A stretch of DNA of 64,000 bases, from UHGV virus genome UHGV-0112973. One strand, written 5' to 3'. Source of the stretch: a virus. The translations under genes were made by a program, and so were the position numbers. The number at the start of each line of letters is the position of its first letter. Position 1 is the first letter of the stretch. The notes beneath the pieces are model-generated. The model was not told the origin of the DNA. It saw nothing but the letters and a program-made list of their open reading frames with translations, and did not search any database. This document shows, piece after piece, positions 4,070 to 19,193 of the stretch.

Positions 4070-5332
4070 ATGAGCACTTCAGCACAAAACCAATCAATCG
4101 AAAATGTATGTATCCCTGATGTCCTGAATGCCGGTATCCCGGCCATTATCCAGAACATCCGGGCCGCGCAACGCCGCGTTAGTTGTGATGACCTCACAGC
4201 ACGTTTTTTTGATAATGCGGTTCAGTCAGCGGAGATGCTTCACGCACAGCTTATTGATGTTTATAACGCAGAAGCTGATAGCCATAACTCCCTGGTAGAT
4301 GCAGCTGAAAATATGCAGTTGGATCTCGGTCTGAAGGGTAAAGAAATTGAAGAGCTTCAGCTGGAAATTGAACATTTGAAACGCCAGCAACAGGACGCGA
4401 TCGACGATGCGACGCATGACGCCAACCAGCGTGCTGATAATGCCGAACGTATAAGCATTGAGCTGGAAACAAAACTCAATGAAATGACCGCGATGGTTGA
4501 ACTGCGGAACTCACAGATTTCAACGCTAAAATCTCAATATAAAGAGATCATGAAACTTGATCCTTTTAACCTTGAGAAACGCTATAACAAAGCTAAAAGC
4601 GAGCGACAGGAACTGCGTAAGCAAGTCGCCGACCTTAACCAACAGCTCAAAAAAACTATTAAAGATGCAAGCGAGGCGCGCGTGGCATTTGCTAATAAAA
4701 AAGCAGAGGTTACCGCGCTGGTTAATGAGAATGCCAAATTTGCGACGCTCAAGAAGGAAATGTATGGCATTACTGAGCGCCGTTTCCCTGCAAGCAAACT
4801 TCATCCGACGTTAGGGCAAATCTCCTTCTTCCCGCGCCTCCTGGCTTATGGGATCTCATCGCCTAAAGAGTTCAATAACGAGCGTCCTTATATCGTTTCT
4901 AAGCTGGACTTTGCTTATCAGTTCTGCTGCGACATGGGCTATGCCATTGATATCCGGATCAACGAATGGTTGATGCCAAACTTCCAGCCGTTGGCCATTT
5001 TCCGCGAGTTCCAGCCGGAAGGTTGGGTAGAGTTCTTCCATGAATTGATCTGTAAAGAGATGGAAAGCCGCCGCCCGGAACTGGTCCGTCGTGTCGAGTG
5101 GGCGCAAGAGGTTATGTTGGCAGATGCAGAGCTACCGTTCGAACCGGAATTTATTGATGAACTGGCAACTAAAGGGTTGCATACCCTGTTTGATGTGGTT
5201 ACCCGCCGTCATGAGCAGTTGGTTGTCGAATTGGGTTTAGAGGAAACAGCGGCAAGAAGACTTCTCGATGTTTGCTATGCACGTAGCGATGCATGGGAAA
5301 AAGAGAACGGCGGCACTATTTACGTCCGCTGA
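4070..5332 (+). CDS. hypothetical coiled-coil protein
   Basis: 420 aa; long heptad-like central region (LQLEIEHLKRQQQD...); followed by a hairpin terminator. Confidence 0.45.
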   Translation: MSTSAQNQSIENVCIPDVLNAGIPAIIQNIRAAQRRVSCDDLTARFFDNAVQSAEMLHAQLIDVYNAEADSHNSLVDAAENMQLDLGLKGKEIEELQLEIEHLKRQQQDAIDDATHDANQRADNAERISIELETKLNEMTAMVELRNSQISTLKSQYKEIMKLDPFNLEKRYNKAKSERQELRKQVADLNQQLKKTIKDASEARVAFANKKAEVTALVNENAKFATLKKEMYGITERRFPASKLHPTLGQISFFPRLLAYGISSPKEFNNERPYIVSKLDFAYQFCCDMGYAIDIRINEWLMPNFQPLAIFREFQPEGWVEFFHELICKEMESRRPELVRRVEWAQEVMLADAELPFEPEFIDELATKGLHTLFDVVTRRHEQLVVELGLEETAARRLLDVCYARSDAWEKENGGTIYVR

Positions 5333-15156: not shown

Positions 15157-16640
15157 TGGCCAGAAGTTGCGTAACGGATCCACGTTGGCGCGAGCTGGTG
15201 GCGCTATATCGTTATGACTGGATTGCTGCCGCTGATGTTTTGTTCGGCAAAACACCTACCTGGCAGCAGGATCTGATTATTGAGTCTGTGCAGGAACAGG
15301 GTAGCAAGACATCTGTTTCGTCTGGTCACGGTACCGGGAAATCAGACATGACTTCTATCATGATCATGTTGTTCATAATCATGTATCCAGGTGCCCGTGC
15401 CATTATCGTTGCGAACAAAATTCAGCAGGTAATGACCGGTATATTCAAGTACATCAAGATAAACTGGGCTACTGCCACCAGCCGTTTCCCATGGCTTGCT
15501 GATTATTTTGTTCTGACAGAAACCGCTTTCTATGAGATTACTGGTAAAGGTGTATGGACTGTAGTACCGAAGGGCTTTCGTCTGGGAAGTGAAGAAGCTC
15601 TCGCCGGTGAACACGCAGATCATCTTCTGTATATTATCGATGAAGCCTCCGGTGTCAGTGATAGAGCTTTCGGTATCATCACCGGTGCTCTTACCGGACA
15701 GGATAACCGCATCTTATTGCTGTCACAGCCTACACGCCCAAGCGGCTATTTCTACGATACACACCATAAACTGGCCAAGCGTCCTGGTAACCCTGATGGC
15801 GTTTATACGGCGATCACGCTTAACAGTGAGGAATCACCGTTGGTAACGCCAGCATTTATCAAAATGAAGCTGGCGGAGTACGGCGGGCGTGATAACCCTA
15901 TGTACATGATTAAGGTACGCGGCCTATTCCCTAAATCACAGGATGGCTTCCTTCTTGGACGTGATGAGGTTGAACGTGCAACGCGGCGGAAAGTCAAGAT
16001 TGCCAAAGGATGGGGCTGGCTTGCATGTGTGGACGTTGCTGGTGGTACGGGACGGGATAAGTCCGTTATCAATATCATGATGGTGTCCGGCCAGCGAAAT
16101 AAACGCCGTGTAATCAACTATCGAATGCTGGAATACACAGACGTTACAGAAACGCAGCTTGCCGCCAAAATTTTCGCAGAATGTAATCCTGAGCGATTCC
16201 CCAATATCACCATAGCGATAGACGGCGATGGCCTGGGTAAAGCAACGGCGGATCTGATGTACGAGTATTATGGTATTACCGTACAGCGTATACGCTGGGG
16301 TAAAAAGATGCATAGCCGTGAAGATAAGAGCCTGTACTTTGATAAACGTGCTTATGCCAATGTTCAAGCCGCAGAGGCCGTAAAATCTGGTCGTATGAGA
16401 CTGGATAAGGGTAATGAAACTATTGAGGAAGCGTCGAAAATCCCTGTAGGGATTAACTCCGCAGGTCAATGGAAGGTGATGAGTAAGGAGGATATGAAGA
16501 AAAAACTCAACCTGCACTCACCAGACCATTGGGATACATATTGTTTCGCTATGCTGGCGGATTATGTTCCCCAGGATGAAGTGCTTAGCGTCGAAGACGA
16601 AGCGCAGGTTGATGAAGCTCTGGCATGGCTTAATGAATGA
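15156..16640 (+). CDS. pacB: terminase large subunit PacB
   Basis: 494 aa; ATGA-coupled to pacA; length and position as in P1. Confidence 0.85.
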
Positions 16641-16643
16641 ATA

Positions 16644-16660
16644 TTTGCTCTAATAAATTG
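16644..16660 (+). promoter_or_regulatory. C1 operator-like site (TTTGCTCTAATAAATTG)
   Basis: 15/17 consensus; immediately after pacB stop, ahead of the c4-like/icd/ant-like module. Confidence 0.6.
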
Positions 16661-16791
16661 TGTTTTTTAGCTACCGATGTTACATTGAACCTGACCTCTT
16701 GCGCCTTGTGGCATTTTCGGTTTATGCTTATCAGGCACCTCATTAAAACGGGTGCCGGGATTGGCCTCCCGCTTAAGTCTAAGGCGATACA

Positions 16792-16813
16792 GACGCCGCT
16801 CGCGTCTTTTTTT
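16792..16813 (+). terminator. terminator-like hairpin (GACGCCGCTCGCGTC + T7)
   Basis: Short GC stem followed by TTTTTTT in the leader of the icd/ant-like module. Confidence 0.35.
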
Positions 16814-16829
16814 GTATCGGCGTACACGC

Positions 16830-16930
16830 ACACCTCTACAATGGTGGGCTGTATGGGGCTACCTTCGGGTAGGCTGGTTACCTTGGACGCCAGTAAGGCC
16901 AACTCCGTACAGTCCACCGCCAGCAAGATT
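16830..16930 (+). ncRNA. c4-like antisense RNA candidate (copy 1)
   Basis: Block ATGGTGGGCTGTATGGGGCTACCTTCGGGTAGGCTGG alignable to copy at 61064 with compensatory stem changes around a TTCG loop. Confidence 0.3.
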
Positions 16931-16978
16931 GGTCTCTTCTGCGGTGGTTACATACCAACGTCTAAGGAGGCTGCCAAT

Positions 16979-17200
16979 ATGGCTACTATCCCTACCCCAA
17001 CTCATCCTGAATTTATCTGGCGCTTTTACTCCTGCCAAAAACGTCACTATCACTTCGTTATTGCACCGACAGAAGATGAGGCACGTTCTCAGCTTCCTGA
17101 CGCCCCATGTATTTTCTCTGCCCGTTTTTCCACTGATTCACGCAATTCTCTCAGTTACTGGTGCCTCCCTGTTAACGCTTCTGCTCAGGAGGGACTATGA
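16979..17200 (+). CDS. Icd-like small protein (copy 1)
   Basis: 73 aa after AAGGAGG RBS; about 70 percent identical to the icd-like ORF at 61193; ATGA overlap with ant-like gene. Confidence 0.55.
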   Translation: MATIPTPTHPEFIWRFYSCQKRHYHFVIAPTEDEARSQLPDAPCIFSARFSTDSRNSLSYWCLPVNASAQEGL

Positions 17201-18309
17201 GAACATCGTTAGTTACCCGTGAAGAGATGATCGAGGCAATTGAACAGCACACTGCCTGTATCAGTACCAGGGATATACCTGGCGTTATTGCCAACTACTT
17301 CATGATCACCAAACAACTTTACCGGAGAAAGGACAAACACGCGGTTCACCGCATTCTGCTAACCGATATCCGTGAATACCTGCTCGAACAGGGTCATCTA
17401 AATTACGCAACCGTCGCAGCCGAAGCACGCAAGGAGGCACACAGAATGAAAGCAACTAACGTTAAATCAGAAAAAATTTATGCACCTTCAGTTCAGGAAT
17501 CGGAACTGGTGGTTGTTCAGAATCAGCCGGATGAAATTCCCGTTCTGGAATGGCAGGGAGTACGTGTCGTGACAACCGAAACTCTTGCTAGAGGGTATGG
17601 GGTCGATGAAGCCAATATTCGCAACAATTTGTCTCGCAACCTTGACCGCTTTGAAGAAGGTAAGCATTACTTTCTTCTAACTGGTTTAAAATTAAGAGAA
17701 TTTAAGAACAGAGTAACCGGAAGTTACTCTGTTGGTAAGAACGCCAGAAGCCTTACACTCTGGACAGAGCGCGGCGCTGCACGCATGTCTAAGATCGTGG
17801 ACACAAATGAAGCATGGGCATTCTTTGAAAAACTGGAAGACAGCTACTTCCGGCAAAAAGAACAGCAACCGGTTGCAATCCCCCAAACATTACCAGAAGC
17901 CCTACGCCTGGCTGCCGAACTGGCTGAACAAAAGCAGCTTCTGGAACAGAAAGCCCACCAGCTAAATCAGCAGCTGGTGGCCGCCGCTCCTAAAGTCGAT
18001 TTTGCCGACCGGGTATCAGTAGCTAAAGGGATCCTGATTGGGAATTTTGCAAAGGTTGTTGGACTTAAGCAAAACGCGCTGTTTGCCTGGTTACGGGAGA
18101 ACGGCATCCTGATAGCGTCCGGTGGACGTAAAAATGTGCCGTTCCAGCAGTACATCAATGCGGGGTATTTCACGGTGAAAGAAGTGGTGCTGGATGATGA
18201 AGATGGCTACCAGATACGGTTGACGCCTCAATTAACGGGTAAAGGCCAGCAGTGGTTGACGCGTAAACTGCTCGATGCTGGCTTGTTAAAACCGGTGGCG
18301 GCTGAATAA
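17197..18309 (+). CDS. antirepressor-like protein (Ant/KilA-C family, copy 1)
   Basis: 370 aa; N-terminus and C-terminal about 135 aa closely match the Ant at 61411 and KilA at 62619; different central domain. Confidence 0.65.
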   Translation: MRTSLVTREEMIEAIEQHTACISTRDIPGVIANYFMITKQLYRRKDKHAVHRILLTDIREYLLEQGHLNYATVAAEARKEAHRMKATNVKSEKIYAPSVQESELVVVQNQPDEIPVLEWQGVRVVTTETLARGYGVDEANIRNNLSRNLDRFEEGKHYFLLTGLKLREFKNRVTGSYSVGKNARSLTLWTERGAARMSKIVDTNEAWAFFEKLEDSYFRQKEQQPVAIPQTLPEALRLAAELAEQKQLLEQKAHQLNQQLVAAAPKVDFADRVSVAKGILIGNFAKVVGLKQNALFAWLRENGILIASGGRKNVPFQQYINAGYFTVKEVVLDDEDGYQIRLTPQLTGKGQQWLTRKLLDAGLLKPVAAE

Positions 18310-18341
18310 TGGAAGAATGCCCGGTTGATGCCGGGCATAAT

Positions 18342-19193
18342 TTATTGCGCGCTTTCGGGGTTGTCGTTTACTGGCTGCCCCTTCTTGGTTTTACGGCTGC
18401 GCGTAACTGATGCGGCTGATTTGACCTTTTTCTCTTCGCGAGTGATGGCAATTTGTTTTTTTACATTTTCAATATCTGCCAGGCGATATATTTTTGCCTG
18501 CGGCCAGCGGTCGCAGATGATCGGTTCTATAGAGTCATAAAGGCTAAATTTTGCTTTTTCGAATTCACCGTTGATGATGATTCCATCACGGAGAGTTTCA
18601 TCGCAGATAAACACGCCACACAGCGGTACATGGTAACTAACTGATTTACCATCATTGTAGTTAGGGCTACTGGAGATGTAGTGGACGCGCAGCATTGTTT
18701 CGCTAAAGCCGTGTACACGCATACGGAATTTTTCATCCTCCGGGTACTGCCTCATTAGCTCTTTTGTTGCTTCCAGGTTCTCTATGTATTTCGCACTGTG
18801 CTCATTGATCCCCGCGCTTTTTTGGATGCGAATGTCCTTATCAATCAGATGAATAATGCGGCCAGCGGTCATGTTGACGCTGTTCACAGCTTCTGTCTGA
18901 TAAGTTGTAACCTTGCGCACACCGCGAAGGATGTTAGGCACTGGATATAAAATAGTCTTTGGGATATTGAGGTCTGGGTACTGTTCCAGTTCCCGCGCCA
19001 TTAAAGTCCATTTATCAATTTCAGCCTGAATGCTGTCAGTTTCTTTGAACGGTAGAACGACAACCGGGCGTACAGGACGACCGTCGCTGGCTGTATCAAC
19101 GTGTTGGGCGCGTGCAACAGCTTTTTTTAGAAAGAGATCCCTGAAGCTGACGAACTCCTGGTACAGTTGTTCGCCGTAGACATAATTTATCAT
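18342..19193 (-). CDS. c1: C1 repressor of lysis
   Basis: 283 aa MINYVYGEQLYQEFVSFRDLFLKKAVARAQ... recognised as P1 C1; position next to coi and loxP. Confidence 0.9.
   Translation of the reverse strand: MINYVYGEQLYQEFVSFRDLFLKKAVARAQHVDTASDGRPVRPVVVLPFKETDSIQAEIDKWTLMARELEQYPDLNIPKTILYPVPNILRGVRKVTTYQTEAVNSVNMTAGRIIHLIDKDIRIQKSAGINEHSAKYIENLEATKELMRQYPEDEKFRMRVHGFSETMLRVHYISSSPNYNDGKSVSYHVPLCGVFICDETLRDGIIINGEFEKAKFSLYDSIEPIICDRWPQAKIYRLADIENVKKQIAITREEKKVKSAASVTRSRKTKKGQPVNDNPESAQ

Follow-up and report, generated by a model that had tools for sequence, protein, structure and literature searches.

Can a P1-like phage-plasmid hold two immunity operons of the immI type, each addressed by an antisense RNA of its own? 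The question is raised by the interval between the genes pacB and c1 in the virus genome UHGV-0112973, of which a stretch of 64,000 nucleotides was analysed (“the window”; all positions refer to the whole window). The textbook account of P1 immunity derives from phages with a single immI operon. The window is a P1-like phage-plasmid, in which pacA and pacB run to position 16640 and are followed by c1 (18342-19193, on the minus strand and ending at 18342), coi and cre. The pacB-c1 interval (16641-18341, i.e., 1.7 kb) is filled by a module whose junctions lie exactly at both stop codons. In the reference P1 genome, nothing lies between the stop codon of pacB (93206) and the end of c1 (93231) in a gap of 24 bp, and the window therefore holds 1.7 kb without counterpart in P1 or P7. 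An initial annotation, made from the sequence alone, had read the module as an insertion: comparison with both reference phages confirms that neither carries it, but the term insertion is justified only relative to P1, as either a loss by P1 or a gain by the lineage of the window would account for the difference. A transposon or insertion sequence origin was considered and ruled out: the module has neither a transposase nor terminal repeats, and it begins and ends at the stop codons of pacB and c1.

We propose that this module (module 1; the canonical immI copy of the same genome is called module 2) is likely to be a functional second antirepressor operon of the immI type, i.e., a diverged paralogue of c4-icd-ant1/2 of P1 and P7, and that its key region would be a cassette of ~250 bp subject to exchange between P1-like plasmids, Stx phages and P4-like satellites. 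The earlier view that the interval holds a further immI-like unit whose antisense specificity differs is supported, and all elements listed in the initial annotation were recovered between pacB and the convergent c1 at, or a few bases from, the places assigned to them. The features of module 1 are as follows:

16644-16660, plus strand: C1 operator-like site (TTTGCTCTAATAAATTG), 15/17 matches to the 17-bp P1 operator consensus
16658-16686, plus strand: putative upstream promoter TTGTGT-17-TACATT, with its -35 element overlapping the operator
16699-16728, plus strand: putative downstream promoter TTGCGC-18-TATGCT, clear of the operator, a weak consensus match
16735-16813, plus strand: IsrK-type leader RNA (Rfam isrK match 16735-16812)
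16735-16755, plus strand: leader hairpin 1
16756-16771, plus strand: leader hairpin 2, with a1 in its loop
16761-16767, plus strand: target site a1, TTGGCCT, in the loop of the second leader hairpin
16777-16784, plus strand: target site b1, GTCTAAGG, in the leader
16791-16813, plus strand: intrinsic terminator of the leader (hairpin 16791-16807, then seven T; terminator scan)
16843-16921, plus strand: C4-type antisense RNA, predicted mature form (Rfam match 16837-16924)
16881-16888, plus strand: b' loop CCUUGGAC, in the loop of C4 hairpin 2
16896-16902, plus strand: a' AGGCCAA, in the C4 3' joiner
16929-16935, plus strand: target site a2, TTGGTCT, in the icd leader
16960-16967, plus strand: target site b2, GTCTAAGG, in the icd leader, overlapping the Shine-Dalgarno sequence AAGGAGG (16964-16970)
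16979-17200, plus strand: icd-like gene, 73 aa, ribosome-binding site AAGGAGG at 16964-16970
17197-18309, plus strand: ant1-like gene, 370 aa, its ATG overlapping the icd TGA (ATGA, 17197-17200)
17446-18309, plus strand: predicted in-frame ant2-like product, 287 aa, from an internal ATG after AAGGAGG (17431-17437)

The argument starts from the small RNA. An Rfam scan of the whole window returned four matches above the curated thresholds, namely isrK, c4-a1b1 and two C4, of which one C4 match lies in module 1 and the other in the canonical copy (61060-61145). The module-1 RNA scores 75.9 bits against the C4 model (RF01695; cut-off 45) and thus belongs to this family. Its predicted mature form folds at -41.8 kcal/mol (z = -4.06 relative to shuffled sequences), and what had been noted as a structured RNA candidate can accordingly be named. 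The identical three-helix fold was obtained for 14/14 distinct C4 homologues, each sequence being folded singly, and 11 of the 23 consensus pairs show compensatory changes on both sides among 10 distinct C4 sequences. This extends the compensatory stem changes that had been noticed between the two copies, both of which are Rfam C4 RNAs. RNAalifold missed the helix of hairpin 2, because the MAFFT alignment of the C4 sequences was shifted by one column there; the helix was checked by folding the sequences singly.

In the GenBank annotation of P1, C4 has the targets a1 and b1 upstream of c4 and the targets a2 and b2 in the icd leader; a2/b2 are described as “repression of icd ant translation”, expression of ant is said to depend on icd, and a complex of Ant1, Ant2 and C1 is noted. 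Ant1/Ant2 constitute the antirepressor, the synthesis of which is repressed by c4 RNA (PMC8546580). The same set of sites is found in module 1, where a' and b' are complementary to a1, a2, b1 and b2, and b2 lies over the ribosome-binding site of icd. Each a site can form seven pairs and each b site eight, with one G·U pair each in a2, b1 and b2. When the two flanking leader segments were shuffled 20,000 times, the full set of four target sites never appeared (0/20,000); single sites appeared in 1.4-2.3% of the shuffles each.

The second copy for comparison is the canonical operon, which the initial annotation had correctly located upstream of kilA and repL:

60862-62454, plus strand: canonical immI operon, followed by kilA and repL; it consists of an operator, the a1/b1 leader (60939-61033), C4 (61066-61142), icd (61193-61414) and ant1/2 (61411-62454)

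The position between sim and kilA-repL is occupied by this canonical copy; lying elsewhere, module 1 has to be considered a paralogue of immI and not immI itself. In module 2, C4 and the four target sites do not differ from those of P7, and the loops (b' CACAAUC, a' CUGCUAA) are wholly unlike those of module 1. The corresponding targets are TTAGCAG (a) and GATTGTG (b) in the canonical copy and P7, and TTGACAG and GTTAGTG in P1. In duplex calculations, the module-1 b' reaches -13.9 kcal/mol on its own b2 and -12.4 kcal/mol on its own b1, but only -5.6 to -6.9 kcal/mol on b targets of the P7 and P1 types. Conversely, the module-2 b' reaches -11.7 (b2) and -8.7 kcal/mol (b1) on its own sites, versus -5.4/-5.6 kcal/mol on those of module 1. 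With own-b pairing of -8.7 to -13.9 and cross pairing of -5.4 to -6.9 kcal/mol, the earlier suggestion of two antisense specificities is supported, and the C4 RNAs of the two modules are predicted to be, very probably, orthogonal.

Upstream of the canonical operon (59508-61182), three open reading frames (ORFs) of 270, 111 and 52 aa are present on the minus strand. Judged by size and order, they fit simC/simB/simA of P1 and not upf50.0/upf50.5 of P7; the 270-aa simC-like ORF begins one start upstream of the 264 aa of P1. Region 59508-61182, with its C4 and target sites of the P7 type, may be a P1/P7 mosaic.

How the recognition sequences vary was followed in a sample of loci collected by Icd alignment, consisting of 79 IMG/VR loci and 7 loci from species-representative genomes (cited below by L numbers). 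The order pacB - module - c1 with an ORF6N-type Ant is present in 53 of the sampled loci. The 67 modules of the isrK type fall into five allele combinations, built from 3 a alleles (TTGGCCT, TTGAGAC, TTGGAAC) and 3 b alleles (GTCTAAGG, GTCAAAGG, GCAAAAGG); the b allele of the window and GTCAAAGG differ by a single base. In each combination, a1, a' and a2 shift together and stay complementary, and likewise b1, b' and b2. The alleles were typed by separate patterns; the a' pattern was misplaced in 6/67 loci, which were settled from the C4 sequences. Matched changes are also seen at the canonical locus, where 2 a alleles and 5 b alleles were distinguished; P1 and P7 represent only two of its combinations. 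Both loci could be typed in ten genomes or contigs, including the window, which together display nine different two-locus combinations. The variation is sharply localised: the window and phage JL22 are 98-100% identical over module and flanks, but 62-80% identical in 16741-16990, and the specificity alleles, as judged from these alignments, sit in a hypervariable cassette of ~250 bp inside near-identical flanks. Localised divergence and covariation, together with the constraint on Ant described below, indicate selection on RNA-target pairing and on Ant.

Several variant loci were encountered in the same sample. In the commonest allele with the GCAAAAGG b sequence (carried by JL22; L052, L054, L056, L059, L060, L062 and others), the icd-like gene starts with GTG, not ATG (…GCCATTGTGGCT…). 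Three IMG/VR loci have the order pacB - icd-ant module - kilA, which looks like the product of recombination between the two directly repeated modules; in one of these loci (L013), an isrK-type cassette is combined with an Ant whose centre is of the P1 type, while Ant is of the ORF6N type in the two others. Locus L019 has two isrK+C4 pairs 1566 bp apart (2757-2946 and 4323-4512). Duplicated modules may drive rearrangements or deletions.

Upstream of C4, the control region resembles that of P1 in its architecture. The C1 operator at 16644, which had been noted before, is one of 13 C1 operator-like sites in the window (0.22 expected by chance); it is conserved at related loci, and its relative position is that of Oc4/Op51 in P1. 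At the level of sequence it qualifies as an operator of the P1/P7 immI type, to which C1 would putatively bind. Region 16644-16734 is collinear with the P1 control region at 60% identity: operator and both annotated promoter positions align, and the distance from the start of the operator to hairpin 1 is 91 nt in module 1 versus 90 nt in the canonical copy. The upstream promoter is collinear with the annotated P1 promoter P2c4 (TTGTAT-17-TATCTT), and the downstream promoter lies where P1c4 (TTGACC-17-TATAGT) is annotated in P1; transcription from the downstream promoter is predicted to start at the 5' end of the isrK-like RNA. Since the control region is collinear with P1, module 1 is regarded as a diverged immI paralogue, the specificity cassette of which recombines with a wider pool.

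The terminator-like hairpin described in the initial annotation is real, and is part of an IsrK-type leader with a1/b1 that had gone unrecognised. The leader matches Rfam isrK (RF01394) over model positions 1-77 of 77 with 60.8 bits (gathering cut-off 50), and the match is combined with an intrinsic terminator upstream of an antirepressor operon, as in other IsrK-type leaders. The canonical leader matches isrK over the full length at 60952-61033, with 43.7 bits and thus under the cut-off, and gives an above-threshold match to Rfam c4-a1b1 at 60939-60991, a model which the module-1 leader (16722-16775) matches weakly (20.5 bits). The two Rfam families, isrK (RF01394, not in a clan) and c4-a1b1 (RF03163, in clan CL00128), thus seem to describe one leader element. 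A terminator-like hairpin between b1 and c4 is present in the P1/P7 leader, too.

The protein-coding part also follows immI. The Icd-like protein, a 73-aa ORF preceded by AAGGAGG as previously described, is 73% identical to the canonical Icd of the window and 74% identical to P1 Icd, and matches NCBIfam phage_ICD_like and phrog_1426. The 370-aa Ant-like protein is coupled to it by the ATGA overlap that had also been pointed out, and an internal Shine-Dalgarno-ATG pair (17431-17448) lies at the codon equivalent to the annotated ant2 start of P1 and of the canonical copy; both the icd-ant coupling and the nested ant1/ant2 starts are thus recognisable in the sequence. Both Ants of the window belong to phrog_63 (anti-repressor Ant; 1e-135 for module 1). 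Their overall identity is 56%; they have the N-terminal ~85 residues and the C-terminal third in common, the latter at ~90% identity. The difference in the central domain, which had been noticed before, consists in an ORF6N domain in module 1: here, a P1 Ant1-like N-terminus is followed by ORF6N (Pfam, 2.5e-18) and a C-terminal KilAC/ANT domain (ANT, 1.5e-31), whereas the canonical Ant has a Pfam match for the KilAC/ANT domain only. At the canonical kilA-linked locus, the centre of Ant is polymorphic, being of the ORF6N type in 9 loci and of the P1 type in 10 (L076, L083, L089, L090 and others), which suggests that both Ant types are interchangeable and have the same role. Ant is 370-372 aa long in 55/69 related loci, the ratio of non-synonymous to synonymous polymorphism (pN/pS) ranges from 0 to 0.22 across relatives, and the ant genes of the window and JL22 differ by 9 synonymous and 0 non-synonymous changes; judged by these values, Ant is intact and under purifying selection. 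The C1 of the window is practically that of P1 (3 of 283 aa differ).

The Ant of RCS47 is 56-84% identical to that of the window at 17541-17840, i.e., in the central domain, and 94-100% identical in the flanks of this stretch, which on this comparison is a second mosaic segment within the module. One further feature lies beyond the end of ant:

18317-18338, no strand assigned: GC-rich, terminator-like hairpin separating ant from the convergent c1 gene; its stem has 9 pairs, including 6 G-C pairs

The T tract of this hairpin is weak on either strand.

Besides immI, the closest models for such an operon are found in lambdoid prophages and satellites. In the Salmonella prophage Gifsy-1, the short, Hfq-associated RNA IsrK acts in trans: it pairs with a downstream region and thereby activates translation of the antirepressor. 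Processing of read-through RNA yields a species of ~80 nt (PMC4825925). The isrK-orf45/STnc1160-anrP locus of Gifsy-1 and the cassettes of Stx phages resemble module 1 in having a full-length isrK leader with a terminator, a C4-type RNA and an antirepressor operon; the Gifsy-1 locus is equated with C4 here through the description in PMC4825925 and through Stx-phage records that annotate isrK and C4 side by side. The window cassette and the isrK-C4 cassettes of Stx-converting lambdoid phages are ~80% identical; in these phages, the cassette precedes a Rha/antirepressor gene that begins with the same codons (MATIP) as the icd-like gene of the window. In contrast to these systems, module 1 is headed by a P1 C1 operator and P1-type promoters and has icd between the RNA and ant, and the a/b specificities of two Stx phages differ from those of module 1. 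The cassettes of chromosomal P4-like satellites are 85-89% identical to that of the window and have the a allele (TTGGCCT / AAGGCCAA) in common with module 1; the same stretch is matched by Pfam Phage_ASH. The immunity of P4 is likewise based on a processed antisense RNA, CI, which pairs with repeated targets upstream and downstream of itself. The satellites that were read, however, have other b alleles and lack a P1-type Ant, and P4 CI RNA is described as acting through transcription termination rather than through a block of the icd ribosome-binding site (PMC4825925, discussion). The same discussion raises a possible effect of antisense pairing on leader termination. In P4-type immunity, transcription ends prematurely at seqA/seqC-type sites.

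Compared with P1 and P7 immI, module 1 is alike in its operator, the two promoter positions, the a1/b1 leader with a terminator-like hairpin followed by C4, the location of b2 on the icd Shine-Dalgarno sequence, the 73-aa Icd, the ATGA-coupled Ant and the nested Ant2 start. It is unlike immI in lying at the pacB-c1 locus as a second copy beside the canonical operon, in the isrK/Stx-phage type of its leader and C4 backbone, in its unrelated recognition sequences and in the ORF6N centre of Ant.

The proposed mechanism follows P1 immI and Gifsy-1 IsrK, from which we infer the promoters, RNA processing, translational repression, Ant-C1 binding and the effect on immunity. Transcription would start from one or two promoters beside the C1 operator, and the leader terminator would stop most transcripts, yielding a short IsrK-like RNA with the a1 and b1 sites. 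Read-through transcripts would be processed to a C4-type RNA of ~79 nt, the b' loop and a' joiner of which would mask the icd ribosome-binding site by pairing with a2/b2. Blocking the translation of icd would also block that of the translationally coupled ant1/ant2. When C4 is absent or non-cognate, e.g., on entry of the operon into a lysogen whose prophage produces no C4 but one of another type, Icd and Ant would be synthesised and Ant would inactivate C1. The short leader RNA may, in turn, titrate C4 through a1 and b1; these sites on a terminated leader are plausibly a decoy for C4, by analogy with the known systems. As the module-1 C4 is predicted to be orthogonal to P7-type C4, the genome would carry two independent immunity keys.

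Several observations weigh against such an operon or weaken parts of it. A sigma-70 scan of the plus strand upstream of the RNAs gave no promoter at a threshold of 9 of 12 matches, and both promoters are proposed because of their collinearity with the P1 annotation alone. If the operator-linked promoter were repressed by C1 in lysogens, C4 synthesis there would hang on the weak putative second promoter. The window allele has one G·U pair in b:b' and one in a2:a'. In a simple duplex calculation, the a sites discriminate poorly: pairing of the module-1 a' with its own leader is put at -9.2 kcal/mol, and pairing with foreign leaders lies in the range of -8.8 to -9.4 kcal/mol. The ORF6N central domain is unlike P1 Ant, so that C1 is a presumed target of this Ant. 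Finally, the relatives compared are close, and shared ancestry would explain part of the conservation, but not the covariation.

Other explanations were weighed. The operon might be RNA-controlled and functional while its Ant acts on the repressors of other residents, or while the module RNAs cross-regulate those elements; the targets would then be lambdoid, Stx or Gifsy-type prophages or P4-like satellites, and the module would serve inter-element conflict rather than P1 immunity. The similarity of the RNA cassette to those of Stx phages and satellites, the first icd codons in common with the Stx-phage gene, and the ORF6N centre of Ant all fit this idea, as does a strain that has the plasmid allele together with a satellite of the same a allele. 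This strain is E. coli OkiPb01717, in which the P1-like plasmid NZ_AP042707.1 carries the cassette allele of the window (100% identical) and the chromosome carries a P4-like satellite C4 cassette with the same a allele (TTGGCCT / AAGGCCAA) and a different b allele. Partial RNA cross-talk between co-resident elements is conceivable on the basis of such matches. However, the operon is headed by a C1 operator and a P1-type promoter layout, the N-terminus and the ~90% identical C-terminal third of its Ant are P1 Ant-like, an Ant of the ORF6N type stands in for the P1 type at the canonical, kilA-linked position of the 9 loci mentioned above, and the satellite and Stx-phage b alleles examined differ from that of the plasmid. 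A principal role against other elements is therefore considered unlikely.

Even less can be said for a module that is a decaying or silent duplicate of immI, passively carried and without present function. Promoters that are weak by consensus and the viability of P1 and P7 without the module would agree with decay, but all parts are intact, Ant is maintained at full length under the constraint described above, the module is kept at the pacB-c1 site in hundreds of plasmids (see below), and three-way covariation of RNA and targets over five alleles requires selection on pairing; silent carriage is thus highly improbable. The same holds for the possibility that 16637-17200 encodes a protein and not RNAs, with the RNA structure being incidental. 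RefSeq records of many plasmids and chromosomes call the stretch “ash family protein”, and indeed an ORF of 187 aa runs from 16637 (the pacB stop) through the isrK and C4 genes in frame into icd and matches Pfam Phage_ASH (PF10554) with E = 2e-11 over nt 16739-17014. Yet this frame is broken in other alleles, e.g., into gp120 and gp121 of JL22, the allelic changes keep base pairs and target complementarity and not amino acids, and two Rfam covariance models match over their full length. A parallel exists in Gifsy-1, where the nucleotide sequence of “orf45” is conserved while its amino-acid sequence varies (PMC4825925). Membership in a conserved Ash protein family is thus not borne out, an Ash protein is very hard to reconcile with these patterns, and the Phage_ASH call at this locus probably reflects a translated RNA region. 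A second immI-type operon under RNA control remains the preferred reading of the pacB-c1 module.

The module is not peculiar to the window genome. At the same site, it was found in 277 PLSDB plasmids (at a coverage of at least 80%) and in four matched phage records, including RCS47, JL22 and vB_EcoM-673R5, while 314 further PLSDB plasmids have the uninterrupted P1-type pacB-c1 junction. In RefSeq, its genes are labelled as Icd-like, KilAC antirepressor and “ash family protein”. One study mentions an “ant” insertion, or an antirepressor gene and two short ORFs, between pacB and c1 in pTZ20_1P and RCS47 (Venturini 2019, PMC6906374), and a single sentence in another refers to a second antisense-RNA (c4)/icd region in the D6-like plasmid prophage pYU39_89 (PMC6799933). 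A full-text literature search of incomplete coverage returned only such one-sentence mentions and no analysis of the RNA genes at pacB-c1, their targets, orthogonality or allelic series. Within the searchable literature, two findings therefore appear to be new, namely the at least five specificity alleles at pacB-c1 with matched changes in a1/a'/a2 and b1/b'/b2, and the assignment of the pacB-c1 cassette to the type present in Stx phages and P4-like satellites.

By the PLSDB counts (277 plasmids with the module vs 314 with the P1-type junction), a second, apparently orthogonal switch is present in almost half of the P1-like plasmids sequenced. If this switch is functional, the P1/P7 model alone cannot predict heteroimmunity, the outcome of superinfection or prophage induction among these elements, many of which spread antibiotic-resistance genes. 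The allelic series with its three-way matched changes would then represent a natural set of orthogonal antisense RNA/target pairs. Moreover, c4/a1b1 of P1, IsrK/STnc1160 of Salmonella and the “ash” region of the P4 type are linked as one cassette family, and the decoy function proposed above suggests a role for the unexplained a1/b1 sites. More tentatively, the two loci might together form a combinatorial RNA “immunity barcode” in natural P1-like phage-plasmids, with a superinfection advantage and cross-element effects; we regard this possibility as rather doubtful. If it is true, the pacB-c1 antirepressor of an incoming phage would not be silenced by a resident with one C4 type, resulting in an asymmetric superinfection advantage. 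As the pool of ~250-bp cassettes is common to Stx phages and P4-like satellites, the C4/IsrK-like RNAs of unrelated co-residents could also silence or de-repress each other's antirepressors. Under the barcode hypothesis, this would amount to cross-immunity or cross-induction between co-resident elements, possibly including Stx prophages.

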